A stretch of DNA of 44,175 bases from a virus: the IMG/VR virus record IMGVR_UViG_3300029715_000022, positions 1 through 44,175 of that record; one strand, given 5' to 3'. The notes beneath the pieces were generated by a model. It did no database searches, was not told where the DNA came from, and saw only the letters and a list, made by a program, of their open reading frames with translations. Both the position numbers and the translations under genes were made by a program. This document shows, piece by piece, positions 1,360 to 33,588 of this stretch. Position 1 is the first letter of the stretch. Every line of letters starts with the position of its first letter.

Positions 1360-2472
1360 CTAAAAAAACCGCTGCTGGCCTGCCAAATCTCCGCGGCGCT
1401 CCTGCTCCATGCGCTGCCTCTTGTACTCGTTATACTTCTCCCGGTAGCGGTAGCTATCCCCGAAGATCGCCCACGCGGCCCGGACTACGTTGGGCTCATA
1501 CGGCCGGATCCGCTCCAGATCCGCTGCGGCGCGGGCAGAGATCGCGCAGCCGCAGCACCCGGTGCGCTTGAGCCCATAGACCTCGTAGGCGTCCGAGTAC
1601 CGCAGCCCGTAGTACTCCTTGTACCACGCCTTGTCTGCGTCAGACACGTAAAACAGCGGCCGCAGCCGGAATTTCCCGCTTGTCGTCTCCGCAAAGCACA
1701 TGCTCCCGCTGATTCCTCTGTGCCGGATGACTCGCATACCGCCCTCGGCTCGCCGTTCCCCGGTGATTAACATGTCATACTGCTTTTCGATGGCATGGGA
1801 CGGTTGCTTTTTACATATATCGCAGCACTTGTTGCTCACCCGAAAGGGGATGGGGTGCTCCCGGACAAAGTCCAGCATGTACTTGCTGCTGTTGATAACG
1901 AGTTGGATGTCCGGCCGCGGCTCCCCGGCAGAGTTGCAGCAGCACACAAAATTGATCGTCTGCTCGCAGCCCGGATACCGGGCCTTGAGCTCGGCGCGCT
2001 TCGCAGCCTTGTCCTCCGCCTCGTTGTACTCGTCGTGGATCGACAGCGGGATCTGCTTTTTCTGGAGGCCCTCCAGCCCGGCCGACATGATCTTGGATAC
2101 AAACGGCTGGCCGTACTCCCTTGTTGCCTGCACGATGTTTTTCTTGGGGCGGACGGTCGTGATCTCCACGCCGTACCGCTCCGCCTGCTCTTTGACATGC
2201 CGCCTCGTCGCCGCCATCTCAAGGCCAGTTTCGAAAAAGTAGTAGTGCACCGGCGGCAGGACAAATACCTCGCGCACCTGCTCGATCAGGTGCAGCAGGA
2301 TATCGCTGTCACTCCCGCCGCTGTAGCTGCACATGGTGTTGGGATGCTCCCGGAGCCGCCGTGCGATGATCCCCTTGATCGCCTCGAACTTCTGCGGGGC
2401 TTCAAAGTCCGCATACGGTGGGCGATTGGTGTACACGGAGGACCTGAACTCTCCGCTTTTAGGTTTCCGCAT
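1360..2472 (-). CDS. PAPS-reductase / PP-loop ATP-pyrophosphatase family protein (DndC/IbrA-like), 370 aa
   Basis: PP-loop motif SYSGGSDS near the N-terminus. Cys clusters (CCCN, CCDIC, RTGCCGC) are typical of phage PAPS-reductase-like proteins. Confidence 0.8.
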   Translation of the reverse strand: MRKPKSGEFRSSVYTNRPPYADFEAPQKFEAIKGIIARRLREHPNTMCSYSGGSDSDILLHLIEQVREVFVLPPVHYYFFETGLEMAATRRHVKEQAERYGVEITTVRPKKNIVQATREYGQPFVSKIMSAGLEGLQKKQIPLSIHDEYNEAEDKAAKRAELKARYPGCEQTINFVCCCNSAGEPRPDIQLVINSSKYMLDFVREHPIPFRVSNKCCDICKKQPSHAIEKQYDMLITGERRAEGGMRVIRHRGISGSMCFAETTSGKFRLRPLFYVSDADKAWYKEYYGLRYSDAYEVYGLKRTGCCGCAISARAAADLERIRPYEPNVVRAAWAIFGDSYRYREKYNEYKRQRMEQERRGDLAGQQRFF

Positions 2473-9400: not shown

Positions 9401-9805
9401 ATGTTATCCGATCGCATGAATGAGATCAAGCAGAAAACCGGGCTCACCAATGCCTCTTGGGCCGAGCGGTCCGGCGTCCCCATCAGCACCGTCTCGCGGA
9501 TCCTCTCCGGCGCGACGGAGAACCCCGGTTTCCAAACGGTCCTCGATCTGATCTCGGCTGCTGAGGTCCCGCTCTCGGCCGTCCTTCCGGATGGCCTTGT
9601 CTTCCCGGACTCTCCCGCTTCGCCTCCCGCTGCGGAGCTGCTGGCCGAGAAGGATCGCCGCATCGCCGGGCTGGAGCGGCAGGTCGCTTTCCGCTCGCGC
9701 TGGATGCGGCTCCTCGCCATCATCTGCACCACGCTTGTCGCCGTGCTCGCCTTTTTGCTGATTTACGACGCGCTCAGCCCCCACGTCGGCTGGTTCCGCA
9801 GTTGA
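9401..9805 (+). CDS. XRE-type HTH protein with C-terminal TM anchor (134 aa)
   Basis: AGGAGG RBS. HTH segment LTNASWAERSGVPISTVSRILSG. C-terminal TM helix LLAIICTTLVAVLAFLLIY. The stop overlaps the integrase leader. Confidence 0.75.
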   Translation: MLSDRMNEIKQKTGLTNASWAERSGVPISTVSRILSGATENPGFQTVLDLISAAEVPLSAVLPDGLVFPDSPASPPAAELLAEKDRRIAGLERQVAFRSRWMRLLAIICTTLVAVLAFLLIYDALSPHVGWFRS

Positions 9806-9825
9806 TGCCCCAAGGAGAGTCTGCT

Positions 9826-10980
9826 ATGCCGATCACAAAAATACAAAAAAAGCGCGACGGCCTGCAGGGCTATCGCGTCCGCGTCAATTATACCGATCCC
9901 GACACCGGAGCCTACCGCCGGATCGAGCGCATCGTCTACGGCAAGGCCGAGGCCGCCGAGATGGAGCGCCAGCTCAGCGCCGAGGCCAAATTCCCCGCCC
10001 CCACCGCCGACGACCGCCTCACCGTCGCCGAGTTTGCCCAGCAGTATCTCAAATACAAATCGAACGAAGTGCGTGCATCCTCGCTCGCCACGCATGAGGC
10101 CCGCCTGCGCACGCACGCTATCCCATTTTTCGGCCCGCTGCGTATGCGCGCCGTCACCCCACGGCACGTTGCCGATTGGGTGTCGTCCCTGCACAGTAAG
10201 GGCCTCGCCCCCAATACCATCTCCGAGGTCTACGCAATTACAAAATCCATGTTCGCGCGCGCCGTCGAACTCCGCATCATCCCAACATCTCCCTTCGGGC
10301 GGCTCCGCTGCCGACGCAAGGCCATGCCAGACGCCCCGCAGCACGATTTCCAATTCTATACCGCAGAGCAATTTCAGCGTTTTTACGCATCGGCAGCCGC
10401 CGCCGTTTCCATTGCAAAAAATCCCATCCAAGAGCGGCAATACATGATGTTTTTCGTCGTCGCATTTTATACCGGCATGCGGCCCGGCGAAGTCCTCGCC
10501 CTTCACTGGACGGATATCGACTTCCCGGCCCGCCTGATCCGTATCCGCCGCACTTATTCCGATCGGTATGGGGAGGGGCCTGTCAAAACGGAGTCCTCTG
10601 TCCGCGATATTGGCGTCCCCGCCCCCCTTTTCGAGGAGCTGCAGGCGCACCTCCGTTTTCAGCGCGGCATGCCCGGTTTTTCTCCGGACTTCCTCGTCTG
10701 CGGCGGTCCTTCGCATCTCGTGGCGTATACTGTCCGCAGGCACAAGCTTGCCTATGCGAGCGGCGCAGGACTCCCGCAGATCCGCCTCCATGATTTCAGG
10801 CACTCTCACGCCTCCCTGCTCGTTAATAATGGCATCAATATCCAGGAGGTCGCGCGCCGCCTCGGCCACTCCAATGTCAAGGAGACTTGGGACACCTATT
10901 CCCACCTGTATCCTCGCGAGCAGGACCGCGCGATCACCGTTCTTGACACCGTCCAGCTCTCTCCTCTAACCACCCCGTGA
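9826..10980 (+). CDS. int: Tyrosine recombinase / phage integrase (384 aa)
   Basis: AAGGAGAG RBS. Arm-binding-type N-terminus (ITKIQKKRDGLQGYRVRVNY). Catalytic signatures GMRPGE, HDFRHSHAS and LGHSNVKETWDTYSHLY. Confidence 0.92.
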   Translation: MPITKIQKKRDGLQGYRVRVNYTDPDTGAYRRIERIVYGKAEAAEMERQLSAEAKFPAPTADDRLTVAEFAQQYLKYKSNEVRASSLATHEARLRTHAIPFFGPLRMRAVTPRHVADWVSSLHSKGLAPNTISEVYAITKSMFARAVELRIIPTSPFGRLRCRRKAMPDAPQHDFQFYTAEQFQRFYASAAAAVSIAKNPIQERQYMMFFVVAFYTGMRPGEVLALHWTDIDFPARLIRIRRTYSDRYGEGPVKTESSVRDIGVPAPLFEELQAHLRFQRGMPGFSPDFLVCGGPSHLVAYTVRRHKLAYASGAGLPQIRLHDFRHSHASLLVNNGINIQEVARRLGHSNVKETWDTYSHLYPREQDRAITVLDTVQLSPLTTP

Positions 10981-11242
10981 TTTTCGGTGTTTTTTCGGTG
11001 TTCTCCCTCTTATGCTCCATCTCCGAAAGCGCCGGAACCCTTGTGTTTTCAATGGTTCCGGCGTTTTTTATCCTCTCTTTTTTCGTTGATGCTCATCAAC
11101 AACAACTTTTATTCATCTTTCTGTTTCTTTCTCTTTCTGCCTCTCAACGCATCTCATTTTCTCTCTTTACATTGCTCAAACTCCAACTTTCTCCGACCTC
11201 AATTTTCAAATTCTCAAAATTCTCGGTGCTCATTCGGTGCAC
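10981..11242. other. Candidate attP region (AT-rich, with arm-type repeats and a core-like palindrome)
   Basis: Lies immediately 3' of int. TTCGGTG pairs at 10983/10994 and (C/T)TCGGTG pairs at 11222/11233, each phased 11 bp apart. Palindrome GTTGATG-CT-CATCAAC at 11085-11100. This is the lowest-GC stretch of the window. Confidence 0.4.
11030..11069 (+). terminator. Rho-independent terminator after int
   Basis: Stem cgccggaacc / ggttccggcg, then TTTTTT. Confidence 0.7.
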
Positions 11243-11279
11243 AAAAGGCCCCGGCAGTCTCCTGCCGGGGCTGTTTTTG
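11243..11279. terminator. Bidirectional hairpin terminator closing the long minus-strand operon
   Basis: 10-bp stem gccccggcag / ctgccggggc with loop tctc. An A-run lies on one side and a T-run on the other. Confidence 0.7.
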
Positions 11280-11281: not shown

Positions 11282-11860
11282 TCACTCCACGATGCACTCG
11301 TAGTACACGCGCGCCTTGTCCGGCACGGCGTCCTTGTCCTCGAGCCACGCCTTGGCGAGATCGAGGTAGAGGTCCGTCCCGGTGCAGCCGTGGTCCATGA
11401 GTACCTCGCAAAAATCGCTGTACACCGCATTCATTGCGCACCAAAATTCGACGGGGTCGCAGTCAATGCCGCGCTCGTGCATCATCTTGAGCACATGGTC
11501 CGGTGCCCACTTCGCGCCGACCGTGCCGTCGGCGTTTTTCATACCGCCGACCCACTTCTCGGCCTCCTCCCACGACAGACGGTCGTCATCGTCCTGCTGC
11601 TTCTCGAATCCGATATGCCCCATCTCCCGGCGCCCCGGCTCGCGGCTTCGGCCGCCGCCTCTCGGCTCGATGTCGTACCGGCGGCCCATCGGCTCGTCGC
11701 GGTAGCGGCGATCATAGTCGCCGTCGCTGCGCGGCGCATAGCGGCCGTCATTGTATCGCTCGCGTCCGCGCCCGTCGCGGAATCGGCCCTCCGGCCGGTC
11801 TCTGCGTTCCTCCTCGCCGCTCCCGCGGCGGTAGAACATCATTTTTGTCCTGGCGTCCAT
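11282..11860 (-). CDS. Hypothetical protein with R/D/E/G-rich disordered head and globular C-terminal domain (192 aa)
   Basis: AAGGAGGGA RBS. The C-terminal domain reads WEEAEKWVGGMKNADGTVGAKW...NAVYSDF... Confidence 0.75.
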   Translation of the reverse strand: MDARTKMMFYRRGSGEEERRDRPEGRFRDGRGRERYNDGRYAPRSDGDYDRRYRDEPMGRRYDIEPRGGGRSREPGRREMGHIGFEKQQDDDDRLSWEEAEKWVGGMKNADGTVGAKWAPDHVLKMMHERGIDCDPVEFWCAMNAVYSDFCEVLMDHGCTGTDLYLDLAKAWLEDKDAVPDKARVYYECIVE

Positions 11861-11871
11861 ATCGTCCCTCC

Positions 11872-12258
11872 TTATGCCGTCGGCGCCGTGCCGTTGACGC
11901 TCGCCAGATTGCTGCTCGGCGCGCAGGCCGCGCGGCCCAGCAGCCGGAAACTGCCGCCCGTCGCGGTGGTGTTGAGCACCGTGCTGTACTTTGTCCGCGT
12001 GCGGATCGCACAGGCGGTCAACTGTGCGCAGCCGCAGCTTGTCAGCGGATACTGCACTGTCCCGCTGCCGATCGTCACCACGACCGGAGCCGTGATGGTC
12101 GCCGTCGTCGGGATCGTCTGCGCCACGACGAGACAGTATTTCTCGCCGTCGTTGTAGCTCCCGGCCGGCAGGTTGATCGTCAACACGCCGTCAGCAAACG
12201 TCACGGCCTGCGAGATCACAAGACGGCGGCACAGCTTACACACGTTGTTGCATGCCAT
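11872..12258 (-). CDS. Cys-rich small protein (128 aa)
   Basis: AAAGGAGGA RBS. Starts MACNNVCKLCRRL, with further Cys at TSCGCAQLTACA. Confidence 0.75.
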   Translation of the reverse strand: MACNNVCKLCRRLVISQAVTFADGVLTINLPAGSYNDGEKYCLVVAQTIPTTATITAPVVVTIGSGTVQYPLTSCGCAQLTACAIRTRTKYSTVLNTTATGGSFRLLGRAACAPSSNLASVNGTAPTA

Positions 12259-12312
12259 GGTATATCCTCCTTTGCTCAGGGGCGGCAGCTGCCGCCCCGA
12301 TCTCTCATCCCG

Positions 12313-13104
12313 TCAGAAGCAGCCGTAGCCCTGCTGGCAGCCTGCGCCGCAGTACGCCGCATGCGGGTTTTGCACCAGGTACGTCGGCTGCGGCGTCGAG
12401 TTGCCGGTCCGGCGGATCAGCTCTTCCGTGTTGGCGTCCATCGCGGCCTTGAGCACGGCGTTCTGCTCGCTCCGCGAGGCGGCCAGACGGAGCGTCTGGT
12501 TTTCCTGCTGCAGGGTCGAGATCTTGTCGTTGACCATAAAGTCCAGGATGCTGCGCGTGTTGGCGTTGGCGTTGTCGATCACGTCGCGGGCCGTGCTCTG
12601 GATGGTGTTGCGGATGTCGCAGCTCTGCGTCGCAAGGTTGTAGTTGGTGTCGGCAAAGCCTCGCTCCATCAGGCGCTGCGTCTCGCAGCAGCACTGCTGC
12701 TGTCTCGCTCCGAGGTCGCAGATCTGGCCCTGCACGCCGTTAAAGCCCTGCATCATGCCCATCTGCGTGGCGTTAAAGCCCTGCTGCATCGCGATCTGCC
12801 CGTTGAGCATGCCGGTGTTCATGGCATAGAAGCCGTCACACAGGCCGTTCTGGAGCCCGCGGATGCCGTTCTGGATCTCTGCCGTCACAAAGCCGTCGTT
12901 GACTGCCTGCCGCGTGTCGATGCCGCTGAGATACGGCACCGCCATACCGGCCCCGTTGTTGCCGTTGTTGCCCCAGTTGTTGCCAAAGATCAGGGCAAAC
13001 AGGATAATCACAATCCACCACGAGCCGCCGCCAAACATATCGTTGTTGTTGCGGTTGCCGGAGTCAGCGCCCAGCGCATACCCCATGCCAAAATCATCTG
13101 CCAT
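12313..13104 (-). CDS. N/G/Q-rich single-pass membrane protein with Cys-rich tail (263 aa)
   Basis: GAGGAGGA RBS. TM segment GGGSWWIVIILFALIFG. Q/N/G/M repeats, a CCC triplet and the C-terminus CGAGCQQGYGCF. Confidence 0.75.
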   Translation of the reverse strand: MADDFGMGYALGADSGNRNNNDMFGGGSWWIVIILFALIFGNNWGNNGNNGAGMAVPYLSGIDTRQAVNDGFVTAEIQNGIRGLQNGLCDGFYAMNTGMLNGQIAMQQGFNATQMGMMQGFNGVQGQICDLGARQQQCCCETQRLMERGFADTNYNLATQSCDIRNTIQSTARDVIDNANANTRSILDFMVNDKISTLQQENQTLRLAASRSEQNAVLKAAMDANTEELIRRTGNSTPQPTYLVQNPHAAYCGAGCQQGYGCF

Positions 13105-13206
13105 TGTTATATCCTCCTCAGTTATTTATGATCCCACGGGCCGCGCGCGCCCGGTGAGTCCTTGCTGCGCGGCTTTTCTCAGGATCCGCAAACCGAGTGG
13201 ATATGC

Positions 13207-13428
13207 TTACCGACGGAAGGGCAGCCCCAGCTGCTGTGCCATCTGCTCTACCGTCGTACCGCGCTCCCGCGCGGCGTTGTCCGCCATCTGGAGGAGCTGG
13301 TTATAATTTTTGCCCGCCAGCATCTGCTGCATCTGCTGGAGCTGAGGTCCCGCGCCCATCTGCTGCAGGGCACCCAGCGGGTTCCGGCCCCGCTGCGCCA
13401 TCTGGATCATCATCATGAGCGGATTCAT
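13207..13428 (-). CDS. Met/Gln-rich small protein (73 aa)
   Basis: GAAGGAGGA RBS. The ATG overlaps the upstream stop. Sequence MNPLMMMIQMAQRGRNPLGALQQM... Confidence 0.65.
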   Translation of the reverse strand: MNPLMMMIQMAQRGRNPLGALQQMGAGPQLQQMQQMLAGKNYNQLLQMADNAARERGTTVEQMAQQLGLPFRR

Positions 13429-13814
13429 TCTGCCGGTTCCTCCTTCTTTTCTGCGGCAGTGAGCCGCTCGCTGATGCCGTTAAGCTGCGCCTGCATCTGC
13501 TGCAGCATCGTCAGCACCGGGTCTGTCGCGGTCTGTGTGCCGTTCTGCGCGGGCTGCGGAGGCGGCGCGGGAATATACTCCCCAAAGCGTGCAGCGCCCG
13601 CCGCAGCGTCCCAGCGCTTGGTGTAGATGCGGTTGTTTTGGATGTCCGCAAACACCATCAGGCTGCCGGAAAAGTCCACCGGCGTTGAGCTTGCCTCCTC
13701 GCGGCTCGATACCATCCGGCACATCGGCCCCTGCGGCTGCAGCGGCTGCTGCCCGTAGCCTCCGTATACCGGCGGCATCACCTGATTGTACCCGGTCTGA
13801 TAGGGATATGCCAT
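13425..13814 (-). CDS. Protein with Y/G/Q/P-rich N-terminus (129 aa)
   Basis: AGGAGG RBS. Sequence MAYPYQTGYNQVMPPVYGGYGQQPLQPQ, followed by a short globular segment. Confidence 0.7.
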   Translation of the reverse strand: MAYPYQTGYNQVMPPVYGGYGQQPLQPQGPMCRMVSSREEASSTPVDFSGSLMVFADIQNNRIYTKRWDAAAGAARFGEYIPAPPPQPAQNGTQTATDPVLTMLQQMQAQLNGISERLTAAEKKEEPAE

Positions 13815-13854
13815 TGTCTCCGCCTCCTGTCTTTGATGGATATATCATACCGTC

Positions 13855-14139
13855 TCAGCCTCTGTGCTGTGCCCGCTTCCGGCGCGTCTGTGCCCGCAAT
13901 GTGTGCAGCCGCCGCTCGATCCCCTGCATCCGGCGGGATACCGTGCTCCGCGTCATCCCCTGCCCGAATTTGTCCTCCATCTCAAATGCGATGTCCAGCT
14001 GCGCCACCTGATCGATCAGGCAGCGCCGCGCGATGTAACTGTCCTCCTCCCCGAGGTTCGCCGCCCGGATCAGCGCCTCGACCTCCTCGCGCCGCATCCC
14101 GGCCGTGCAGCTCCCCGCCTGCATCCTGCCCTTTGACAT
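13855..14139 (-). CDS. Small sigma-70 region-4-like HTH protein (94 aa)
   Basis: AGGAGGGGG RBS before the ATG at 14139. HTH-like segment MTRSTVSRRMQGIERRL. Confidence 0.6.
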   Translation of the reverse strand: MSKGRMQAGSCTAGMRREEVEALIRAANLGEEDSYIARRCLIDQVAQLDIAFEMEDKFGQGMTRSTVSRRMQGIERRLHTLRAQTRRKRAQHRG

Positions 14140-14156
14140 AGTTCCCCCTCCTGTGC

Positions 14157-14188
14157 ATAAAAATGGGAGAGGGCTTTCGCCCTCCCCC
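14157..14188 (-). terminator. Hairpin plus T-run after the giant gene
   Basis: On the minus strand: stem gggggagggc / gccctctccc (one bulge), followed by ATTTTTAT. Confidence 0.5.
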
Positions 14189-14204: not shown

Positions 14205-17200
14205 TTAATGCCACGGAGCCTTGTACAGGTCCCGCTCTGCGTAGCCCTCCGCCCGGTATAGCAGGTCTTTCTGCTCCGCCGTCAGCTGCAGGCTGTTGAT
14301 GAGTGCAAGGATCTTCGCCTTTTTCGATCCGCTGATTGATTTCCCGTTCGCGTCCTTGTCCGCGCTCAGTTCGGCCTTTTTCTGCCAGTACTGCATCCAG
14401 ATCTTTGCGCCGATTCCGCCGCTTCTTGCCTCCGTCAGTTTGTCGTAGGTCTCCTCGCTCAGCACGGTGCTCAGCGCCCTGTAGAGGCTGGTGTCCGTCA
14501 GGTTCTGCTTGAGCAGCACGTCCACCTTGTCGTTGGTCGTGAGCTGCCCGTTCTCGCCGGTCCCCTTTGCGCTGGCCAGCTTGTCGCTGACCTTTTTGGC
14601 GTCGGTCGCGCTCAGCCCGGCCTCCGTCAGGTTGGTGTAGCGCTCCGCCTCCTGCGCAAACATCTGGTAATACTTGAGGCCGTTCCGGATCGCCTCCCGC
14701 TTTTTGCCCTTGATGTTGTGCTGGTCGAGCCAGTATGCAAACTCGGAGGCCTGCTGGCTGCTGCTGAGGCTCTCGTCCTCGTACAGCGTCCGGTACTCCT
14801 CGTACACGTCCATCACGTCATCCCAGCTCATCCCGGCGTCCATCATGTTGGCGAAAACCTCATCCTTCGAGGTCGACTTCGCGCCGGTCTCCTTGTCGGC
14901 CACGCCGAACACCTCGGCATAGATGTATGCCTTAACGCTGTCCCGCACGTCAAGCTCCCGGATCGCGGTGCGCTTCTGCCGGTTTTTGTCGTTGGTGGAG
15001 AGATTCTCGTCCCCGTCCGCCTGCATGAGCTTGTTGTAAAACTGCGTCACGCCGTCCCAGCTCACGCCCTCGTCCATCAGGGTCTCGAACATGGCGTCCG
15101 TTGCGTGCTCATACTCGCCGGTCTCCTTGTTCCTCCGGCCGAACTCCTGCCGGAACAGGTAAGCCTTTTGCTCGTCGGTCAGGCCGGAGTTGTTGATGGC
15201 GTCCCGGATATCCCGCTGCGCCTGATCGGACGTCAGGGTGTCGTCTGCGTTGATCTTGATAAACTCATGCAGCAGGTTGTAGGTCTCGATCGGGTCTGCC
15301 CCGTCCTTGGATAACGTCTGCCACGTCTGCGTGTCCTTGGTCGACAGGCTGGAAAGCCCGGAGGCCCAGTAGGCATTTGCCTGCGGCGTCGCGTTTGGCC
15401 CGAAGAGGATGTTTTGCAGCGCCGTCCCAACGTTCCGCTCGACCGGATACTGCAGCCGCTCCTTGTCCCCGAAGCCCTTTGTCCGTCCTCCCTCGACGAT
15501 CGTTTTGATGCCGGAGTACGTCTTGTTGATCTGCCGCCCGCCGGGGATCGCCTGCGTCACAAGCCCGAGCAGTGCCTCTCCGCTCTCCGGAGAGATCAAG
15601 CCGTGCTCTGTGGCTGCGTCCCACAGGTCTTTGCCCTTGCCGAACAGGTCCGGCATCATCAAAGTTCTGTCTCCCACGCCGACCATGCCGGAGAGATTGG
15701 AAAGGAACGGTACCTCATTGCTGATGTTATACAGCGTGTCCTCCACAGCGTTGCCCCAGTCAAAGCCCTCCTGCGGCGTCGGAACGTCGTCGAACAGGTC
15801 TGTTCCGAACATGGCGTTGCTTGCCTTGTTGAGCATGTATCGGATCCAGTCGTTGGTGGTCAGGCCCTCTCCGGATGCAATGAAATTCATGGACATGCCG
15901 ATGATATCGAACGGGGCCGGAGTCCCTCCGTAAAGCTCCTCCGTCACGCGGTTGACCACAAAGGCCGCAAGCACGGTCTTCAGGATCACGCTGCTGAGCA
16001 CGCGCGCTGCCTTGGCCTTTCCGCTCTCCGCCGCGATCTGCCGGAACTGCCGCGGGAGATCCTGCGACACATGTTCCCAGCTGTTGAGCGCCTCGATCTG
16101 GAACATGTTGACCATCTGCATAACAGGCGTTTTGGAGTGGAACATCAGCGGCTTTGCGCCCTTGGTGCGGTCGCCCATGATGGAGCGTGCGTAGGCGTCT
16201 GCCGCCCGCATGGCCTCCTCGTGCGTCTTGCCGTCACGTATCGCGTCGAGGTATGCCGCTCTGGCCGCGATCGTCGACATCATCGTGTCGACGAATTCGG
16301 CCGGCTTAAACATGCCGGACATAAACGAGTCCGCGAAGGTGTTGGAGATATAATCCACGCCCTTTTTGCCCGTGATGAAATCGCTGTCCATCTGGAACTG
16401 CCGCAGCTTGCCGGTTGCAAACTCCGCCGTCGCCTGTGCGATGGAGCGCTTGCTCCGCTCCCCGAGGATCGTCGGCAGCTGCGCGATCTGGTTGACGGCC
16501 GACGAGACGTTGCCCGCAACATTGGCCCTCGCAAACGCCTGCGTGAGCTGTGTGCCGAGCTTCAGGATGCCGCGGCCTCCTCTGTGCTCTGCCCCGCGGT
16601 CTCCGCCGAACTGCTTCCCTGCCAGCACGTCGCCGTAGTTTTTCAGCCATACGGCAAGATCGGAATACCGCGTATTGTTTTTCTCTGCGGCGAACAGCTC
16701 GGCGATATACTGGTCAAGCTGTTTGTTGATCTCCGCTGTTGTCGGCTCTGCGAAATCATCGACCCGCTTCAGCTCGCGCAAAAAGTCCAGTTTCTCGTCG
16801 CGCTGCCCGCTGCGGGAAAGCTCGATCGCCTCCGCCAGCGAATTTTTGAAGTCGTTCTTGCCGCCGAGGCGTGTATAATTTTCCAGCGCGCGGATTTTCT
16901 GGATGTCGTCCGTGTGGAAAAGCACGTCGGACAGGTACGTCACATAGCTCTCAAACCCGTGCACGATGTCGTACTCGGTCTGCGTCCCCTCGCGGCTCTG
17001 GAAGAACGGCGTCCAGCGCTTGTTCGGCCGGAAGTCCTCCGTCCTGCCCGCGATCTCCGCCGGGAGCCTCGTTGCACTGGCGTTAAAGCCCAGCGCCTCG
17101 AACGCCTGGTTGAGCAGGTTGACCTTGTCTGCCGTGCTCAGGTGCGGCGCGTAGTAGTCGATCTTGCCGATCGGCTCGTCACCATGCGACACGAGGAAAT

Positions 17201-20200
17201 CCGCAATGGCGTTGTAGTAGTCGTCAAAGAGCTGCCGGTACTGCTTCACGGCCGCCGCGCATTTCTTCTCGTCGATCTCGCCCTTGACGCCGTCCTTCTG
17301 CGTCAGGAACTGTGCGTACTGCTGCGCCCACTTGCTTTCTGCGGCGTTCAGGTCGAGCTCCGTCGCCACGCGCTGGATCTCCGCCTCTCTGGCCTCCGCG
17401 TCCGGGCTGGCCTTCTGCGCGGTCTCCATCTTGGTCAGCTCCGTCACGGCCTTCTGAATCGCGGCCTTGTTCGGCGACTGGTTGATCCGCTGCACGGTCG
17501 CCTCGATGTCGAGGGCCATGTGGACGTAGGCACTCTCGGCCTTGTTCAGGCCCTTGACCTTGTCGCCCTCGCCCTGGAACTCGCGCACCGCGTCGAGCTG
17601 CCGGTTCATCCAGCGCAGTCTCTCCGCCTCGTTTCTCGTTACCGGGTCGAAGTAGTACCGGTTGATCTCCTCGCCGCGCTTGTCGCCGAACATCTTGAGC
17701 ATCGAGCGCTGCGGCGTCCGGTAGTTGAGTACGAGCAGGGCCTCCTTGTCAAAGCCGCCCGGATCGCTCATCAGCTCCAGCTCGTCCGGCAGCAGCTCCA
17801 TGGCCTTGTAGAGCAGCGCGTCGCGGATCGCGTACTTGCGCTGCAGCCGCAGGTCCTCACCGAGCATGCGCTTGTCGATGTACAGGTTGGCGAGGTCCGT
17901 CACCGTGTCCCACCTTGCCGTGTCTGGGATATCAGCATAGGAGTACCGCCCGGCCGCGATGTCGCGCGCGAAGTTCTTTTCGAGCGCCGTCGCGCCCCAT
18001 CGGCGCTCCGCCTTGGAGATCAGCTTGTCGGTCTGGTATTCCGCCTCGGCCCGCTGCCGCATCTCCTTGGTCGTCCGGTAGTCCGTCACGCCCATGTCGA
18101 TCTTGACGCCGATCTTGTCGAGCGCCGGGGTCGCGCGGAAGCTGTCCTTTGCCACGCCCTCAGCCGCCACGGTCGTCGCCCTTGCCGGGGCCTCTCCGTT
18201 CCGGTATGCTGCTGCGTCCGCGTCCGCTCTGGCCTTCTTGGCTGCGTTCAGGCGGTTCGCCGCCTCCTGCGGGGTGTACATGCCCTGCTTTGCCGCAAAG
18301 TCCGTCTCCACGGCGCGCCAGCCGCCGTTCTTGCGCGGCTCCACGCGCCAGCGCTTCCCGGTCACGGCCTCCAGCAGCTCCACGGCCTGCTTGGGCGACA
18401 GGTCCGTCGTCTGCGAGTAAAACGGCACATCCTTGCCCCATACAAACCCCTGCGGCATGGCGTTCGTTTTCTGCTGCACCCAGTCCCGGAAATAGCTCTC
18501 GCTCAGGACCGGCTCCCCGCGGTCATCCGCATACCCGAGCACGTCCTCCGGCTGCGTCTCCTCCCGGTCGCTTGCCAACTCCTTCCCACGGATGCCGTTC
18601 TCGCGGATGTCCTGCAGATCCTCCTGTACGGAGAATTTCTGCAGCGGCCCAATCACGCTTGTAAATTTTTCTCCGGATATCTTGACACCGTCGGCGTCAT
18701 ATGCTATACTTCCAATATAGCCGTCCTTGTGCGAACCGTCTGGGCTACCGCTTCGGTAGCCCAGCGACCGAAGCACCTGGGCGGCTCTTTTTGCGTCTGT
18801 GTACAGCACGTTGCTGTCCTCCAGCGAGAGTCTGCCCCCATCCTTCGTGTATGCACTGTTTACCTTCTGCATTCCCTCAAACCTGTATCCGCCCTCCGTC
18901 GGAAGCAGGTCCAGCACGACCTGCACGGCTTTCCCGTTCTCGGCTCTGACGTCACCGAACATGACGAGCCGGGTGTTTGCGTTTTCTGTGTCTACCGCTC
19001 GGCTCGCCAGCACGATCGCGGGGTTTTCCAGCACCTGCGGGAGCGCTTCAATGGTCTGCAGGCTCATCTCCTTATGGGTTCGCATGATCTTGGATATCTT
19101 CCACCCGTTCAGGTAGATGTTCCCGTCCTCTGCCCCCAGATTCTGCAAAACGGGGCCTGTCGTTCCTAATATCAGCCGCTCGTTCCCGTTGCGGCCTCCC
19201 CGGTCCCATCTCTCCAGGTCACTCTTGTACTGCTCGTTGATCTCTGCAGAGATACCTCCGCCCCCGCGGAACAGCGTGTTTTCATCCGCGCCCTTCGGCG
19301 CGGTTTTTCTTCGCTCTTCCTGCGCCATGCGGTATCGCTCGGACACGTTGCGCGCCTCGATCTCTCCCGCCGTGTTGAGGTACATCTCGTAATACGCGGA
19401 CTGCGGGTTCTCCATCTTCCGCTGGAGGTCAAGCAGCCGCCGGAACCACTCGTTTTTGTAGAGCTCCTCATACAGCTTGTCCTGCTCCGCCTCGTATTTC
19501 GCGTACCGCTTCCCGGCCTCGCTTTCCGGGTCTGCCGTAAACGTCGCCTCCATCTCGCGGTCAAGCTCGTTGTAGCGGATCACCTTGTTTTGGTCTGCCT
19601 TGTCGAGGCTGGTCAGGATGCGGCTGTAAAGCTCCTGCGCGCGGTCGCTTGCAGTGTCGCCGCTCTCATACTCGCGTGCCGCCCAGTATTCCGGGCTTGC
19701 TCCGCTCTCCCAGCCCTCGATCTGCTGGATCGCGTGCTGGATCTCGTGCAGCATGGTCCCGACTTTTGCGCTGTCTCCCGGCTTGTCCTCGGAGATCGTG
19801 ATGGTGTTGGTGCTCGGGTCATAGCTTCCGTTCTTGCTTCCCGTGTCGCTCTCCAGCCGGACCTTGACATTCCGCAGCTCCGGGTACGCCTCATAGAGCG
19901 AGTCATGCTCCAGTACGTCCGCAAGCGTCGCGTTCCCGCTTTCTACCCGCTCGCGCAGCCTCGCATACTCTCCGCTCCAGATATCATCCAGCTTCTCCAT
20001 GCGCTGCATTTCGCTTTCGCTGATCGTTCCCTCAAACATCTTCTGCAGCAGGTCCTGATATTCCGCATAGTCGGCATGATCCTCCCGGAACTGTGCATCT
20101 CCGCCGCCGCGGTATTCCGCCTCGCTGTTATCGATCTCAAAGCGCCAGCTCTGGCCGTCCATGGTGCGCGTCCATCCGGTCTCCTGCCAGATTTCCTCGC

Positions 20201-23200
20201 TGCTCGCGCCCTCCTGCTCCATCTGCTCGGCGAGCTGCAGCGTCTGTGAGTTCGCCGTTCTGGCCTTCTGCCCGGCAAGCGAAAATCGCCCCTCCGGGCT
20301 TCCCCTCGTCTCCTGCGAGGTCTGCGCCGGTTCGGACGCCCGCTCGCTCTGCTGCACTTCGCTCTGCACAGCCTCCGTGAACTGCGTCGCGCCCGCGCGG
20401 AACCGGTTCATGCCGGCGTAGGCGTCTGCGAGGACCTCCTCGTAAACGTCCTCCATGCTCTGGTAGGCCCCGCTGTAGCTCTGCACATACTCGCGCGCCA
20501 CCTGCTCAAATGCTTCCTCGCCGAACGTCTCCCGGACCTTTTGCAGCGCCTGCTGCACGAGGGCCGGGTCTTTGTTTCCCCGGACGTGGAAGAGCTCATG
20601 CTGCGCCAGCTGCCCGCCGTCATACTGGATGTCCGTCGCGCTGACGACGGCGCGCTTCACCGCCGCGTCATATACGCCGTTGATGCGCATCAGCTGATCT
20701 CCCCGCTGCATGGCCATCGATCCGCGCACAAAGACGACGTCCACGCCGAGCTCCGCCCCAGCCTGCTTTGCCGCCCGCATCCCGTCGTCATACATGCTCT
20801 CCGGGATCACGGCCAGCGTCACGGCATCCGATCCGCCCCGCACGAGTTTCGCAAGGCTGGTGTCGCTCTGCAGGCTGGCGTAACGGTTCAGCCGTTCCGC
20901 TCTTGCTGCGTCTTCGGGCCGTAGATTCGCTCGACGATTTGCCGGACCATTTTCTCCTGCTCCGGCGTAAGCGTTCCGCCGCTCTCCTTCTGCCGCTGCT
21001 GCTCCTGCTGCCATGCCTCCAGTCTGCTCTCCGGTACCCAGACCTGCATCCCGTTGGCTGCCTCCATCAAAAATCTCCGTTCTGCCATTGTCGATTCCTC
21101 CGGTTTCTGCCGCATTCACGGCGGCGTTTGTTTCCGCTTCCGCGCGGATGGTGTTGACGCCCTGCGCAGCCTCCTGCACGGTCTCCTGCTCTGTCTCGGT
21201 CTGCGGCGTCCCCTCTCCGTATCTCGCGTTGAGATACGCCTGCAGGTTCGCCGTCGCGCCCTCGTTGATCATGCTCAGCTCGTTTCGGAGGTTCAGGGCC
21301 GTCATGGCATCCATCGTGCCATCCTGCACGGCCTTGTCAAGATAGCTTTCGGCCGTCCGGGCCATTTTCGCGATCTCTGCATCCATGCGGCCGGTCATCG
21401 CAAAATTCGTCGCGTTCTCCTCGGCGCTGTCCCATGCCTGCCGGATCTGTCGCACATTCTCCTCCAGCGTCTCCTCCGAGAAGGTCTTGGCGTCTACGCC
21501 TTCGATGCTCCCTCTCGCATCCGCGATCACGCGCTCGGCATCCGTCCCCCGGTATGCCTTCCCCTCTCCGGTCTTGGCCCAGTATGCCTCGGCATCCACG
21601 AGATTCCGATACACCGTATTGTACTCGTTCACGGCCTGCGCCCAGCTCTTTTTTGCTGTGCTGCGCTGCACATGATCCCAGCCGTTGGCGAGCATCAGGT
21701 CCTCGTCGCCCGCCAAAAACTCGACGGCGTACTTTTCCATCTGGAGGTTCAGCTCTCCGCGGTCGCTCTGCGCCGCCGCGTCGAACATCGTGATGCGCTT
21801 GGCGTTGCCCTCGTGGTCGTTTTTGGCCAGCACTTCGGCCGTGTCCGGTCCGATGCTCAGGATCATCGCCAGAGCGAAGCCGGAGATAAACTCATCGCGC
21901 AGCTCGTCCCAGCTCAGGTCTGCCTCGCCGGTCAGCGCATAGTCCAGCGCGGCCGAACCGATCGCAGAGGCCACCTCTTCGAGGCCCTCGCCGATGCGAT
22001 CAAAGAACTCGGAGGAAATAATTTTCCGGATCGTTTCGTTTTTGAATAGCTTATAGCAAAACTCCGTCACCTTGCCGGTGTCCCCGGCGTCGATCAGCGG
22101 GTTTCCGCCGAAGAGCATGTTTGTTCCGTATTCCAGCAGACCGCCCGCGGCGAAGCGGATAAACTGCTCGCCTCTCGCGTCCCCGTTGCTCTCTGCCTCA
22201 CCGTAGGAGTTGATCGCCGCGAAGCTGCTCGTCACGATGTTGCTGCCCCGCTTTGCCATCTGCGCAAACTTCTCGGCCTTCGTCGCGGCGCTTGTCACCA
22301 GCGGCGATACCTGCCTGCCGCCCCCGGCAAAGCTTGCCATCGTTCCGGTCGCCGCCCCGGCAATTGTGGCGGAGGCCGCCATTTCCAGCGCGGCCGTCGT
22401 CAGGCCGGAGATCTGCTCCGCCGCCCAGCGTTCAAACTTGCCGCCGTTCTGCAGCAGGTCAGACGTCTCACGCCCGCGCACCCAGTCCTGATATTTGGCC
22501 TCCTGCCATTCCGGATTCCGGTAGTTGATGTTTTCCTCGCCGCCCTCGGCGAAGTAATCGCCCAGATCGTTTTCAAACGCGCCGAAGCCATTGAGCAGGC
22601 TGCCCAGCGCCTTCCCGGCGTAGCCCCCTCCGCGGACGAGCAGCTGCTCCAGTCCGGCCGGGTACTTCTGGAACAGGTTGTCGCGCGCCCTCTCCGAGCC
22701 GCTCGCCACCTGGTCGAGGAAGGAACCCGCCGACATCTCGGGGTAGCTGTTGAGCGCATCCTCCGCACCCTGTTCGTTTGCGCGCAGGCCGTTGGTCTCG
22801 CGCTGCTGGCGGTAGGTCTCCAGCTGGCTGACCACGTCGCTCGTCCCGTAGCCGCTGACGGCCCGTGTCGCCGGAGCGTTTTTGGCGTAGCGGTCGAGCA
22901 CCTGCATGTACCGGTCATACTGCTCCTGCGTCATGGCCACGTTGGCGAGGTACCCAAAGATCGCAGCGTCCGTCGCCGCGCCCTGCGACTGGCTCGTCAC
23001 GTCCGCCTGCGGATCCACATGCTTGCCCGCTGCGTCAAGCAGCTGGTCGACGCTCTTGTACTGGATGTTTTCGCGCGTCGTGCTCTGGTTGTAGCGCAGC
23101 TCATAGCCAAAGGTATTCCGGTCGGTCGGTATGCCACCCGCTGCGGCAAGCATGGCGTTCTGCTGCGCCTTGCCCGCTGCGGTGTAGTTTTCGTCTCCCA

Positions 23201-24026
23201 TCACCGGCCCGCGCAGTGCGTCCGTCCACTTCTGTTCGCGCTGGCCGAAGCTGCGGCCCTTAACCCCGCTTCGGTATGCGTCGTAGGTGTCATATACCTC
23301 GCTCACGAGCTTGTTGTACTCATCTGCGCTCATGCTCTGGCTGTAGGCCAGATAATACAGGCGGCTGGCCACATCGTCCCACTTTTCCTTCGCGGCTGCG
23401 GCGTCCGTTCCGCTTTCCCCGGCAGTCCGCAGCTCCTGCAGCTCCTGCCGGATGGTCTGGCCGTGCTGTTCCGCTGTCTGGTTCAGGCTGTCCGTGAACA
23501 GCTTTTCAAGCGATTCCCCTCGGACTCTCGTCAGCCTCTGGCGGTACGGCCCGGTCTTGTCCATCTGCAGGGCATTCTCCGCCTGCTGCTGCAGCTGGCT
23601 GCCGGTGCGGACCGGCAGCTTCGGCCGGTATCCCTGCTGGATGCCTGCGTCTACGCCCATGCCCTGCCATTCGTTCGCCTTTCGCAGCTCTCCCCACATG
23701 CCGGTCGCAGCCTTGTACAGCGACCCCACATTTCGCACAGCGTACTTTCCCTGCTCTGCGATCTGCTGCACCTTGGATTCTTTGCGCGCCGCGAGCCATT
23801 CGGCCATTGCGTCGCGTCCCTCCTCCTGCCGTACCGGCGTAGAGGACTTTTCCGTTTTTCCCGTCTTTACCCCGGTCAACGCCGTTGTCGTTTTCTTCGC
23901 CTGCTCCAGGATCTGATCTACCTTGATCTGCGCCTGACGCACGGCCCCGTGCTCCGGGGTCGCGCGCTGTGCAGCTTTCTCTGCATTCCGTTTCGCCAGC
24001 CATTCGGCCATTGCGTCCCTCGGCAT
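14205..24026 (-). CDS. Giant multidomain virion-associated protein (3273 aa) with two zincin-type HExxH motifs; polyvalent-protein-like
   Basis: Uninterrupted 9.8-kb ORF with an AAGGAGGAG RBS. HELFH at aa 1143-1147 (nt 20586-20600). HEIQH at aa 1427-1431 (nt 19734-19748). Several hydrophobic segments. Repeated ~70-80-aa helical units in the last ~370 aa. Confidence 0.9.
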   Translation of the reverse strand: MPRDAMAEWLAKRNAEKAAQRATPEHGAVRQAQIKVDQILEQAKKTTTALTGVKTGKTEKSSTPVRQEEGRDAMAEWLAARKESKVQQIAEQGKYAVRNVGSLYKAATGMWGELRKANEWQGMGVDAGIQQGYRPKLPVRTGSQLQQQAENALQMDKTGPYRQRLTRVRGESLEKLFTDSLNQTAEQHGQTIRQELQELRTAGESGTDAAAAKEKWDDVASRLYYLAYSQSMSADEYNKLVSEVYDTYDAYRSGVKGRSFGQREQKWTDALRGPVMGDENYTAAGKAQQNAMLAAAGGIPTDRNTFGYELRYNQSTTRENIQYKSVDQLLDAAGKHVDPQADVTSQSQGAATDAAIFGYLANVAMTQEQYDRYMQVLDRYAKNAPATRAVSGYGTSDVVSQLETYRQQRETNGLRANEQGAEDALNSYPEMSAGSFLDQVASGSERARDNLFQKYPAGLEQLLVRGGGYAGKALGSLLNGFGAFENDLGDYFAEGGEENINYRNPEWQEAKYQDWVRGRETSDLLQNGGKFERWAAEQISGLTTAALEMAASATIAGAATGTMASFAGGGRQVSPLVTSAATKAEKFAQMAKRGSNIVTSSFAAINSYGEAESNGDARGEQFIRFAAGGLLEYGTNMLFGGNPLIDAGDTGKVTEFCYKLFKNETIRKIISSEFFDRIGEGLEEVASAIGSAALDYALTGEADLSWDELRDEFISGFALAMILSIGPDTAEVLAKNDHEGNAKRITMFDAAAQSDRGELNLQMEKYAVEFLAGDEDLMLANGWDHVQRSTAKKSWAQAVNEYNTVYRNLVDAEAYWAKTGEGKAYRGTDAERVIADARGSIEGVDAKTFSEETLEENVRQIRQAWDSAEENATNFAMTGRMDAEIAKMARTAESYLDKAVQDGTMDAMTALNLRNELSMINEGATANLQAYLNARYGEGTPQTETEQETVQEAAQGVNTIRAEAETNAAVNAAETGGIDNGRTEIFDGGSQRDAGLGTGEQTGGMAAGAAAAEGERRNAYAGAGENGPANRRANLRPEDAARAERLNRYASLQSDTSLAKLVRGGSDAVTLAVIPESMYDDGMRAAKQAGAELGVDVVFVRGSMAMQRGDQLMRINGVYDAAVKRAVVSATDIQYDGGQLAQHELFHVRGNKDPALVQQALQKVRETFGEEAFEQVAREYVQSYSGAYQSMEDVYEEVLADAYAGMNRFRAGATQFTEAVQSEVQQSERASEPAQTSQETRGSPEGRFSLAGQKARTANSQTLQLAEQMEQEGASSEEIWQETGWTRTMDGQSWRFEIDNSEAEYRGGGDAQFREDHADYAEYQDLLQKMFEGTISESEMQRMEKLDDIWSGEYARLRERVESGNATLADVLEHDSLYEAYPELRNVKVRLESDTGSKNGSYDPSTNTITISEDKPGDSAKVGTMLHEIQHAIQQIEGWESGASPEYWAAREYESGDTASDRAQELYSRILTSLDKADQNKVIRYNELDREMEATFTADPESEAGKRYAKYEAEQDKLYEELYKNEWFRRLLDLQRKMENPQSAYYEMYLNTAGEIEARNVSERYRMAQEERRKTAPKGADENTLFRGGGGISAEINEQYKSDLERWDRGGRNGNERLILGTTGPVLQNLGAEDGNIYLNGWKISKIMRTHKEMSLQTIEALPQVLENPAIVLASRAVDTENANTRLVMFGDVRAENGKAVQVVLDLLPTEGGYRFEGMQKVNSAYTKDGGRLSLEDSNVLYTDAKRAAQVLRSLGYRSGSPDGSHKDGYIGSIAYDADGVKISGEKFTSVIGPLQKFSVQEDLQDIRENGIRGKELASDREETQPEDVLGYADDRGEPVLSESYFRDWVQQKTNAMPQGFVWGKDVPFYSQTTDLSPKQAVELLEAVTGKRWRVEPRKNGGWRAVETDFAAKQGMYTPQEAANRLNAAKKARADADAAAYRNGEAPARATTVAAEGVAKDSFRATPALDKIGVKIDMGVTDYRTTKEMRQRAEAEYQTDKLISKAERRWGATALEKNFARDIAAGRYSYADIPDTARWDTVTDLANLYIDKRMLGEDLRLQRKYAIRDALLYKAMELLPDELELMSDPGGFDKEALLVLNYRTPQRSMLKMFGDKRGEEINRYYFDPVTRNEAERLRWMNRQLDAVREFQGEGDKVKGLNKAESAYVHMALDIEATVQRINQSPNKAAIQKAVTELTKMETAQKASPDAEAREAEIQRVATELDLNAAESKWAQQYAQFLTQKDGVKGEIDEKKCAAAVKQYRQLFDDYYNAIADFLVSHGDEPIGKIDYYAPHLSTADKVNLLNQAFEALGFNASATRLPAEIAGRTEDFRPNKRWTPFFQSREGTQTEYDIVHGFESYVTYLSDVLFHTDDIQKIRALENYTRLGGKNDFKNSLAEAIELSRSGQRDEKLDFLRELKRVDDFAEPTTAEINKQLDQYIAELFAAEKNNTRYSDLAVWLKNYGDVLAGKQFGGDRGAEHRGGRGILKLGTQLTQAFARANVAGNVSSAVNQIAQLPTILGERSKRSIAQATAEFATGKLRQFQMDSDFITGKKGVDYISNTFADSFMSGMFKPAEFVDTMMSTIAARAAYLDAIRDGKTHEEAMRAADAYARSIMGDRTKGAKPLMFHSKTPVMQMVNMFQIEALNSWEHVSQDLPRQFRQIAAESGKAKAARVLSSVILKTVLAAFVVNRVTEELYGGTPAPFDIIGMSMNFIASGEGLTTNDWIRYMLNKASNAMFGTDLFDDVPTPQEGFDWGNAVEDTLYNISNEVPFLSNLSGMVGVGDRTLMMPDLFGKGKDLWDAATEHGLISPESGEALLGLVTQAIPGGRQINKTYSGIKTIVEGGRTKGFGDKERLQYPVERNVGTALQNILFGPNATPQANAYWASGLSSLSTKDTQTWQTLSKDGADPIETYNLLHEFIKINADDTLTSDQAQRDIRDAINNSGLTDEQKAYLFRQEFGRRNKETGEYEHATDAMFETLMDEGVSWDGVTQFYNKLMQADGDENLSTNDKNRQKRTAIRELDVRDSVKAYIYAEVFGVADKETGAKSTSKDEVFANMMDAGMSWDDVMDVYEEYRTLYEDESLSSSQQASEFAYWLDQHNIKGKKREAIRNGLKYYQMFAQEAERYTNLTEAGLSATDAKKVSDKLASAKGTGENGQLTTNDKVDVLLKQNLTDTSLYRALSTVLSEETYDKLTEARSGGIGAKIWMQYWQKKAELSADKDANGKSISGSKKAKILALINSLQLTAEQKDLLYRAEGYAERDLYKAPWH

Positions 24027-27315: not shown

Positions 27316-27324
27316 GTGTCCTCC

Positions 27325-29353: not shown

Positions 29354-29367
29354 ATTTTCCTCCTATC

Positions 29368-30864: not shown

Positions 30865-30897
30865 TTTCCTGCCCCCTTTTTACTTGCTCATGCTCCC

Positions 30898-31908: not shown

Positions 31909-31929
31909 ATATTTCCCCTCCTATCTCTG

Positions 31930-32349: not shown

Positions 32350-32367
32350 TTGTCCTCCTTCCGGCCG

Positions 32368-33303: not shown

Positions 33304-33329
33304 GTTGTCCCTTTCTGCCCCTCAGGGCG

Positions 33330-33569: not shown

Positions 33570-33588
33570 GTACTGCCGTGTAAGCATG

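Follow-up and report, generated by a model that had tools for sequence, protein, structure and literature searches.

A conserved six-gene cassette between the late genes and attP of a temperate gut phage, with a possible role at the membrane of the infected cell

The DNA analysed here (IMG/VR virus record IMGVR_UViG_3300029715_000022, positions 1 to 44,175; hereafter the window, 44,175 nt in full) is essentially one complete temperate phage genome of ~44 kb and ~61% GC, with nearly all genes on the minus strand. The element under study is a cassette of six tightly packed minus-strand open reading frames (ORFs), numbered p1 to p6 in the 5' to 3' direction (Table 1). As stated in a preliminary description of the window, the cassette is the last transcription unit of the late genes; it is bracketed by terminators and lies flush with attP, beyond which is the integrase gene. 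IMG/VR contigs of 43-45 kb match the window at 97-100% identity over the stretch compared, and contigs of 99 kb and 456 kb contain integrated copies of the same phage. The phage has an Oscillospiraceae host, NCBI giving an Oscillospiraceae bacterium as the source of an identical p6 protein.

Table 1. Positions of the cassette genes, their boundaries and other features of the window.
Feature	Position	Strand	Evidence or description
p1, small helix-turn-helix (HTH) regulator, 94 aa	13855-14139	-	probably sigma-70 region-4 / LuxR kind, by family
p2, 129 aa, phrog_21718	13425-13814	-	Y/G/Q/P-rich head, conserved ~55-aa central domain, C-terminal helix
p3, 73-aa M/Q-rich helical protein	13207-13428	-	start overlaps p2 stop by 4 nt
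p4, core protein, 263 aa, phrog_16490	12313-13104	-	E = 1.3e-51, residues 12-262
p5 (p5B type), 128-aa beta-rich Cys protein	11872-12258	-	starts MACNNVCKLC
p6, 192 aa	11282-11860	-	R/D/E/G/Y-rich disordered head and C-terminal DUF7841
Intrinsic terminator-like hairpin and T-run, between giant gene and cassette	14155..14188	-	hairpin 14188-14165, then AUUUUUAU
Structured 102-nt spacer, p3-p4	13105..13206	-	-44.2 kcal/mol, z = -4.4; equalled by 0/200 shuffles
Bidirectional terminator at cassette end	11247..11272	.	called on both strands; -34.3 kcal/mol, z = -7.1
attP crossover region, in or beside inverted repeat TTGATGAGCATCAAC	11087..11105	.	comparison with integrated copies
Tyrosine integrase	9802-10980	+	Phage_integrase, E = 7e-21, with SAM-like N-terminal domains
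Giant 3273-aa polyvalent protein, 5' neighbour of cassette	14205-24026	-	LPD23, E = 2e-19; MuF_C, E = 1.8e-10
Portal	25279-27315	-	Pfam, SU10 type only, weak: 23.8 bits, below cut-off
Large terminase	29368-30864	-	Pfam
Major capsid protein	30898-31908	-	Pfam
Lysis cassette	33636-35284	-	
XhlA-like coiled-coil protein, C-terminal transmembrane helix	33850-34170	-	
Amidase_2 and SH3 (SH3_3) endolysin	34175-35284	-	Pfam
Collagen-like, CBM5_12 and Metallophos+Big_2 proteins	35.7-40.1 kb	-	Pfam
Small terminase	40065-40619	-	Pfam
370-aa protein with PAPS_reduct domain, early region	1360-2472	-	

All six ORFs have GGAGG 6-9 nt ahead of the ATG, in agreement with the individual ribosome-binding sites first described, and the spacers along the cassette are 65, 40, -4, 102, 54 and 11 nt. 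The ORFs are confirmed as genuine genes under purifying selection: as judged by comparison with four relatives 89-98% identical over the region, the ratio of nonsynonymous to synonymous substitution rates (dN/dS) of all six is 0-0.14 in the called frames (p1, 0.02-0.06; p2, 0-0.09; p3, 0-0.11), while in the other two frames it is mostly >1, or undefined without synonymous changes. The peculiar compositions that had been read from the translations are all present, namely the Y/G/Q/P-rich head of p2, the M/Q-rich p3, the segment GGGSWWIVIILFALIFG, the CCC triplet and the tail CGAGCQQGYGCF of p4, the MACNNVCKLC start of p5 and the R/D/E/G-rich head of p6. The GC content of the cassette (0.60-0.63) is inside the range of the window, with no GC anomaly, and Rfam and tRNA scans of the region found nothing.

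At its 5' end, the cassette is preceded by the expected hairpin and T-run after the giant gene. The hairpin (14188-14165) has a 10-bp stem with 8 GC pairs, followed by ATTTTTAT, and folds at -23.3 kcal/mol (z = -4.8), an energy equalled by 0/200 shuffles. The closing terminator was likewise found as described, as a hairpin on both strands, and the adjacent attP was confirmed by integrated copies. Identity of the window to three of these, designated L130, L132 and L121, stops at ~11095, 11087 and 11089, respectively, within TTGATGAGCATCAAC; beyond the break lie host genes (for an ABC transporter and others), and beyond the same break in the related sequence L131 and in the window lies the integrase gene. 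The three different host flanks suggest a short core and more than one integration site or host. A scan of the minus strand for sigma-70-type consensus sites found no promoter ahead of the cassette, so that the insulation attributed to the block in the preliminary description consists in the two terminators only. Within the cassette, the predicted fold of the 102-nt spacer between p3 and p4 pairs the Shine-Dalgarno sequence (GGAGG) of p4, and this spacer could be a translational control element.

Database searches gave few assignments. Pfam, PHROGs, NCBIfam and PADLOC scans of the six proteins returned only DUF7841 and PHROGs of unknown function, and profile searches of the PDB with family alignments of p2, p4, p5B and p6 gave no match. 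PADLOC defence models, applied to the six window proteins and four associated proteins, gave no match at E up to 0.01. The earlier statement that the proteins carry no catalytic, tail or baseplate signature therefore stands, as the searches matched none of these, nor a lysis family. The sole curated domain among the six was missed in the preliminary description: residues 79-188 of p6 are Pfam DUF7841 (PF25223; E = 1.5e-23, 83.7 bits against a cut-off of 25.2). Relatives bear a precomputed PF25223 annotation, and among the 19 DUF7841 matches listed none has extra domains. The assignment of p2 to phrog_21718 is weak for the window protein itself (E = 1.6e-4), and 16 of 18 aligned homologues match the same profile (best E = 1e-47). 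Neither a signal peptide nor a hydrophobic segment was found in p2, p3, p5 or p6.

The first gene had been described as encoding a protein resembling sigma region 4. By itself, p1 has no Pfam or NCBIfam match at E < 0.1. However, its jackhmmer family has 25 hits in common with the family seeded from the related locus L001 (L001:7400-7600), which matches Sigma70_r4_2 and GerE, and of ten HTH proteins scanned from this position, window p1 included, 6/10 match GerE and 6/10 match Sigma70_r4_2. This overlap supports the grouping of p1 with HTH proteins of the sigma-70 region-4 / LuxR type. One HTH protein from the same position, not that of the window, matches Phage_antitermQ and the Q-like phrog_79.

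The core protein of the cassette is p4. Its N-terminal part consists of an acidic G/N head, one hydrophobic helix (SWWIVIILFALIF) and a G/N/W linker, and its C-terminal part of Q/N/M/G repeats, an invariant CCC, a predicted long helix (~155-233) and a Cys/Gly tail. It is the only cassette protein with a hydrophobic segment (Kyte-Doolittle ~2.0-2.3), which is short (12-15 residues) and has uncharged G/N/W flanks; the N-terminal tail is acidic (D+E 3.5 against K+R 0.9). An AlphaFold2 (AF2) model from 44 sequences is of low confidence, with a predicted local distance difference test score (pLDDT) of 51. The hydrophobic helix had been likened to YjcZ-type sporulation peptides, a likeness that was not borne out: NCBIfam gave no such match at E < 0.1 (only a chance match to PlsX at E = 0.03), and p4 has 263 aa. 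Relatives form more than 5586 clusters at 90% identity, and an exhaustive search gave 2647 clusters at 50% identity; all 2647 relatives are of 100-340 aa, and none is fused to another domain.

Homologues of p4 were found in 27 phage records, 19 genome loci and at least 588 IMG/VR stretches. The 19 genome loci are in Oscillospiraceae, Lachnospiraceae, Christensenellales, Erysipelotrichaceae and others. Many crAss-like phages also carry p4, as do the plaque-isolated Bacteroides uniformis phage C3_41T2LP, a phage of a non-sporulating Butyrivibrio and two viruses assigned to Methanomassiliicoccales, and the depositors labelled the archaeal-virus homologue phrog_16490. Some carriers have Prophage_tail or tape-measure genes. 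In the crAss-like phage cr116_1, the annotated holin and L,D-carboxypeptidase precede the homologue by 1.2 kb. Across phages of three host groups, the CCC is invariant and the G-rich flanks of the hydrophobic helix are kept. In C3_41T2LP, the p4 homologue is followed by genes for a beta-rich Cys protein, a beta-plus-coiled-coil protein, a 77-aa R/D/Y-rich peptide and a DUF7841 protein (E = 5e-16), the last 1.45 kb downstream of it. By hhalign, p5B showed no relation to the slot-5 protein of the Bacteroides phage, nor p2 to its coiled-coil neighbour. Hence, only p4 and DUF7841 are claimed as common across phyla. In the Methanomassiliicoccales virus vir215 (L032 4152-9006), the p4 homologue comes immediately after a reverse transcriptase gene, which may belong to a diversity-generating retroelement, and before genes for a 396-aa repeat protein with a hydrophobic end and a 156-aa protein with several hydrophobic stretches.

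The invariant Cys residues of p5 are at positions 3, 7 and 10, forming a C-x3-C-x2-C cluster at the extreme N-terminus, and at 42, 77 and 112. The spacing of the cluster is that of a 4Fe-4S-binding motif; a radical-SAM enzyme was considered and rejected, p5 being predicted as all-beta and, at 128 aa, far too small for the fold. Window p5 has no Pfam match at E < 0.1, and its family profile has no match in the PDB. Its AF2 model, from 32 sequences of low diversity, is all-beta with a pLDDT of 45, and the structure comparison advised in the preliminary description, made by Foldseek with this model, gave no match at E < 1. As both AF2 models are poor, no fold-based claim is made. Relatives of p5 number 4489; none of the best 120 falls below 69% identity, compared with 45-60% for p4.

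Slot 5 of the cassette is filled in one of two ways, with the Cys-rich p5B of the window or with p5A, a protein of 130-150 aa that matches BclA_C. Slot 6 also has two forms, DUF7841 and phrog_28802, both with the motif RRDSxGRY, and the slot-5/slot-6 combinations are 35 A-A, 19 B-B, 5 A-B and 1 B-A. The match of p5A to BclA_C (PF18573) was obtained with 5/13 members (best E = 4.4e-7) and is below the Pfam cut-off; p5A also matches the F-BclA head 9H38 (E = 0.002), the TNF/C1q-like tip of the F-ENA fibres of Bacillus thuringiensis (PMC12357932). No relation of p5B to p5A was detectable by hhalign (probability 0.6%), and searches with the p5A family found no relative within the tail-fibre genes of the same loci. 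Since the BclA_C-like slot-5 gene of these relatives follows the gene for a long helical protein, a stalk-plus-head arrangement is suggested. The likeness to BclA and the F-BclA head is confined to slot 5 of most relatives: p5 of the window belongs to a separate Cys-rich family, the cassette has no collagen repeat or exosporium leader, and the head would be a separate polypeptide and not the end of the stalk. Window p5 may also be compared with ENA subunits, which are small jellyrolls with an N-terminal Cys connector, as it is small and beta-rich and has a Cys cluster. It differs from them in having no Pfam match at E < 0.1, hence neither DUF3992 nor DUF4183, and no match in the PDB, and the cassette occurs also in phages of non-sporulating hosts.

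To place the cassette among its relatives, the ORFs of 113 sources were classified with iterative profiles, and co-occurrence was counted at 72 loci where p4 is flanked by at least 2.5 kb on either side; these loci were collected by p4 similarity and include many near-duplicates. The common order is a small HTH gene, p2, p3, p4, a gene for a 130-150-aa beta-rich protein and one for an R/D/G/Y-rich protein. The p2 family and the slot-5 protein are each present in 68/72 loci, the slot-6 protein in 66/72, the p3 family (two subtypes) in 62/72 and the HTH in 60/72. Whether the genes travel as a block in other phages, a check proposed in the preliminary description, is answered by the full order 2-3-4-5-6, which is found in 60 of the 72 loci. 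The cassette is also kept in 20/20 close relatives of the window phage. The block is very probably one copy of a widespread, collinear and horizontally mobile gut-phage cassette. The earlier term cargo, or moron slot, thus fits its position but not its conservation, which is not that of an idiosyncratic insert. The preliminary description had held that matches to known tail, baseplate or lysis families, or the conservation of all six as ordinary virion components at the same position in every related phage, would speak against a cargo block. No known-family match was obtained, and the conservation among the relatives comes close to the latter case.

The orientation of the cassette is that of the late genes, and it usually closes the late operon at the 3' end. 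With a limited seed set of lysis genes, whose commonest family was identified as Pfam ELLD, a lysis gene was found within 5 kb upstream on the same strand at at least 61 of 91 loci. In the relatives L028-L030, which have a giant polyvalent protein, the order is holin, Amidase_2, cassette, integrase. In the phage-plasmid L026, the cassette comes after genes for a PG_binding_1 lysin and an XhlA-like protein and adjoins Rep3; in L007, NlpC/P60, XhlA and holin genes precede it; and in L019 it sits between a GH25 lysin and a holin-like gene. Other positions also occur. The cassette of Dulem virus 35 (L001) is among head genes, between those for a MuF-like minor capsid protein and a scaffold, and the genes directly 5' of it encode an XhlA-like protein and another membrane protein. 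That of L020 is between a tape-measure-like gene and putative tail genes, whose functions were read from sequence, and the p4 locus of C3_41T2LP adjoins replication and recombination genes.

In several relatives the small HTH gene and p2 are separated by an intrinsic terminator, directly downstream of the former (L002 6506-6555, L007 5117-5136, L026 8138-8164, L028 7652-7683); in the window, the terminator directly precedes the HTH gene instead. This arrangement looks like a gated entry into the cassette, resembling the lambda Q / tR' type in that the gene for a small protein resembling sigma region 4 lies beside an intrinsic terminator ahead of the genes it might control, and in that one member of the HTH family matches Phage_antitermQ and phrog_79. 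It differs in that window p1 has no Q match, the terminator of the window comes before the regulator gene, neither a promoter nor a Q-binding element was identified, and the unit is a small terminal cassette rather than a whole late operon. Just upstream of the cassette in 29/72 loci (for example, L001 6382-6780, L002 6713-7090, L005, L006 and L017) is a gene absent from the window, phrog_3754. Its 125-aa product has the motif YNPNP..VGDCxVRA and later His/Asp residues, which give it a papain-like look, and has no Pfam match; it may process or cross-link cassette proteins. Processing of p4 by this protein at a double-glycine leader was considered and rejected, as the motif is not conserved and the gene is absent from the window.

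The window phage is podovirus-like. The order of its virion genes (25279-40619, minus strand) is unusual: small terminase, fibre-like proteins, lysis, major capsid protein and large terminase are followed by a 600-aa protein, the portal, a 410-aa protein and the giant protein. The translation of the last shows two HExxH metalloprotease-like motifs (HELFH and HEIQH); its versions in relatives have 3125-3431 aa and varying LPD domains (LPD3, PBECR5). The phage's own lysis cassette, which consists of the endolysin gene, the XhlA-like gene and a holin-like ORF, lies amid the virion genes, 20 kb from the cassette under study. A domain related to the PAPS_reduct domain of the early region is found in the early region of relative L030.

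The reading that we put forward tentatively, as one possibility, is that the cassette encodes a late-made, cell-membrane-anchored assembly tied to egress. On this proposal, the single hydrophobic helix of p4 would insert the protein in the cytoplasmic membrane of the infected cell, and the long helical, Cys-bearing C-terminal part of p4 would form an oligomeric stalk. The putative small beta-sandwich p5 would cap the Cys/Gly-rich end of p4 or polymerise on it, its place being taken in many relatives by a BclA_C / C1q-like trimeric head. As p2, p3 and p6 have no export signals and are of low complexity, rich in Q/N/G/Y or R/D/G/Y, they might join from the cytoplasm as adaptors or matrix. The small HTH protein, acting at or across the front terminator, would turn the unit on separately as the last late step. 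The assembly might then work at the membrane around lysis or egress, or on membrane remnants shed with the progeny; it would neither act on spores nor form a secreted layer at the lysogen surface. Anchoring in the membrane would account for a core that recurs regardless of virion shape and host envelope, and the egress stage is proposed because the cassette is recurrently linked to lysis genes.

Among known lysis proteins, the closest comparison is with the i-spanin Rz and with XhlA of PBSX. Rz has an N-terminal transmembrane helix and a coiled coil, and forms intermolecular disulfides. For p4, an N-proximal hydrophobic helix and a long helix are predicted, the latter in a model of low confidence, and Cys residues are conserved; the cassette usually comes after holin, endolysin or XhlA genes. 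However, neither protein has sequence similarity to p4, which is much larger than XhlA, and the neighbouring ORFs are without signal peptides or hydrophobic N-termini, so that no gene for a lipoprotein partner is present. A Gram-positive-type Oscillospiraceae host would need no spanin, and the XhlA-like gene of the window lies elsewhere. Three other roles for p4 were also considered and rejected: that of a holin, since p4 has a single short hydrophobic segment in 263 aa and the endolysin gene of the window is accompanied by a holin-like ORF and an XhlA-like gene; that of a holin replacement, since the window already has a complete lysis cassette; and that of a DNA pilot like microvirus H, the likeness being only compositional and the cassette occurring also in phages with tape-measure genes.

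Several points weigh against a membrane-anchored egress assembly. No homology to a characterised protein backs the proposed role, and the models of p4 and p5 are both poor. The shortness of the helix and its uncharged flanks make the topology of p4, and even its insertion, uncertain. An extracellular location would be more usual for a C1q-like head and many Cys residues than one on the cytoplasmic face. With a complete lysis cassette 20 kb away in the window, the cassette is dispensable for canonical lysis, and its adjacency to lysis genes elsewhere may reflect a mere end-of-operon position; that position itself varies, with replication and recombination genes in C3_41T2LP, a tape-measure-like gene and putative tail genes in L020 and head genes in L001 as neighbours. 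The co-occurrence counts are not independent because the loci were gathered by p4 and include near-duplicates, and beyond the phages of Firmicutes only p4 and DUF7841 are demonstrably common.

A somewhat less probable explanation is that the cassette encodes an accessory appendage of the virion. By analogy with the anchor of reovirus sigma-1, p4 would form a trimeric coiled-coil shaft held by its hydrophobic N-terminus, with p5 as the distal head and p2, p3 and p6 as assembly factors, and the fibre would bind a common gut ligand such as mucus glycans and not a host-specific receptor. The cassette does share the orientation of the virion genes, none of its proteins would need an export signal, as with virion proteins, and the BclA_C / C1q-like slot-5 protein of relatives is typical of a fibre tip. 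The high identity among p5B relatives suits a conserved ligand or lattice, and the position in L020, next to putative tail genes, would favour an appendage. In deposited genomes of crAss-like and Bacteroides phages the p4 homologue bears the label 'spike protein/glycoprotein' or 'outer capsid protein/viral fiber', but these labels are unvalidated annotation, and virion proteomics of cassette-carrying phages was not found in the literature. A single device would also need to dock on podovirus-like, crAss-like and long-tailed particles. In the window, the cassette comes after the lysis genes, behind a regulator and a terminator and apart from the phage's own collagen-like fibre genes, and the tail-fibre genes of p5A-bearing loci yielded no relative of that family.

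The position also recalls prophage-encoded functions, of which two were weighed. It is unlikely that p4 and its partners, expressed from the prophage as well as late, exclude superinfecting phages at the membrane or otherwise protect the prophage by blocking the entry of an incoming genome. The prophage-end slot by attP, with terminators and its own HTH gene, is a common place for exclusion and conversion genes, the universal core is a predicted single-pass membrane protein, and independence of the host envelope fits a target in the cytoplasmic membrane. Set against this are the negative PADLOC result, the lack of a promoter-like site before the block and the presence of the cassette in crAss-like phages, which are generally without integrase. 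To our knowledge, exclusion proteins are single small membrane proteins or lipoproteins, and thus differ from five-gene sets with jellyroll and low-complexity partners. Even less probable, and indeed quite improbable, is the proposal of the preliminary description, a lysogenic-conversion cassette for a disulfide-cross-linked host structure on the surface or associated with spores. It drew on the Cys-rich and Q/N/G-rich composition and on a position like that of morons. Morons and conversion genes at prophage ends include lambda bor and lom and the toxin and immune-evasion genes found between lysis genes and attP in Gram-positive prophages. The cassette is indeed last before attP and int, has its own terminators at both ends and is mobile among genomic positions in different phages; many of the hosts are Clostridia, and relatives have a slot-5 protein like BclA_C, the tip domain of the exosporium and F-ENA. 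Unlike morons, however, it has no detected promoter and a GC content the same as the rest of the phage, has a fixed order of its five to six genes, is conserved in thousands of phages, is carried by crAss-like and plaque-isolated phages and is never lost among close relatives. A spore-associated structure is disfavoured by the occurrence of the core proteins in phages of Bacteroides and of non-sporulating Butyrivibrio and in viruses of Methanomassiliicoccales, with p4 also in crAss-like phages, and a secreted surface structure by the four of five structural-type proteins without a signal peptide or hydrophobic segment. Features of YjcZ, of an exosporium leader or of collagen are absent. Given the non-sporulating hosts, the missing export signals and a window p5 that is not BclA-like, the spore or surface reading is unsupported. 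The probability left after these readings falls to something not yet imagined.

No paper addressing the cassette genes was found in the literature; a paper on a crAss 'tail spike' concerns other proteins. The component families are already catalogued, only as unknown, and the window is a typical member of a large undescribed module. Genes of gut phages are mostly unknown and mostly orphans, and this cassette is unlike them in its fixed order, its thousands of members and its strong constraint. Its core proteins cross host phyla, and one crosses domains; blocks conserved in a fixed order usually represent discrete undiscovered virus biology.

The cassette might, though we hold this view only loosely, be an undescribed multi-protein machine of the tailed viruses of gut anaerobes that acts at a late step of infection to which no genes have so far been assigned and has as its core a membrane-anchored coiled-coil protein with a CCC triplet. 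That core would be common to phages of Firmicutes and Bacteroidota and to viruses of methanogenic archaea, and the candidate roles of the machine are a device for membrane egress or remodelling, or a cross-linked structure, dependent on redox or on metal, that is set free together with the progeny. The question is directly testable, as there are two cultivable carriers, Butyrivibrio phage Ceridwen and Bacteroides phage C3_41T2LP. If the cassette encodes an ordinary accessory fibre, an annotation would be gained for phrog_16490, 21718, 20016 and 28802 and for DUF7841. If a role in egress, exclusion or particle persistence is true, it would bear on the persistence of temperate and crAss-like phages in the gut.

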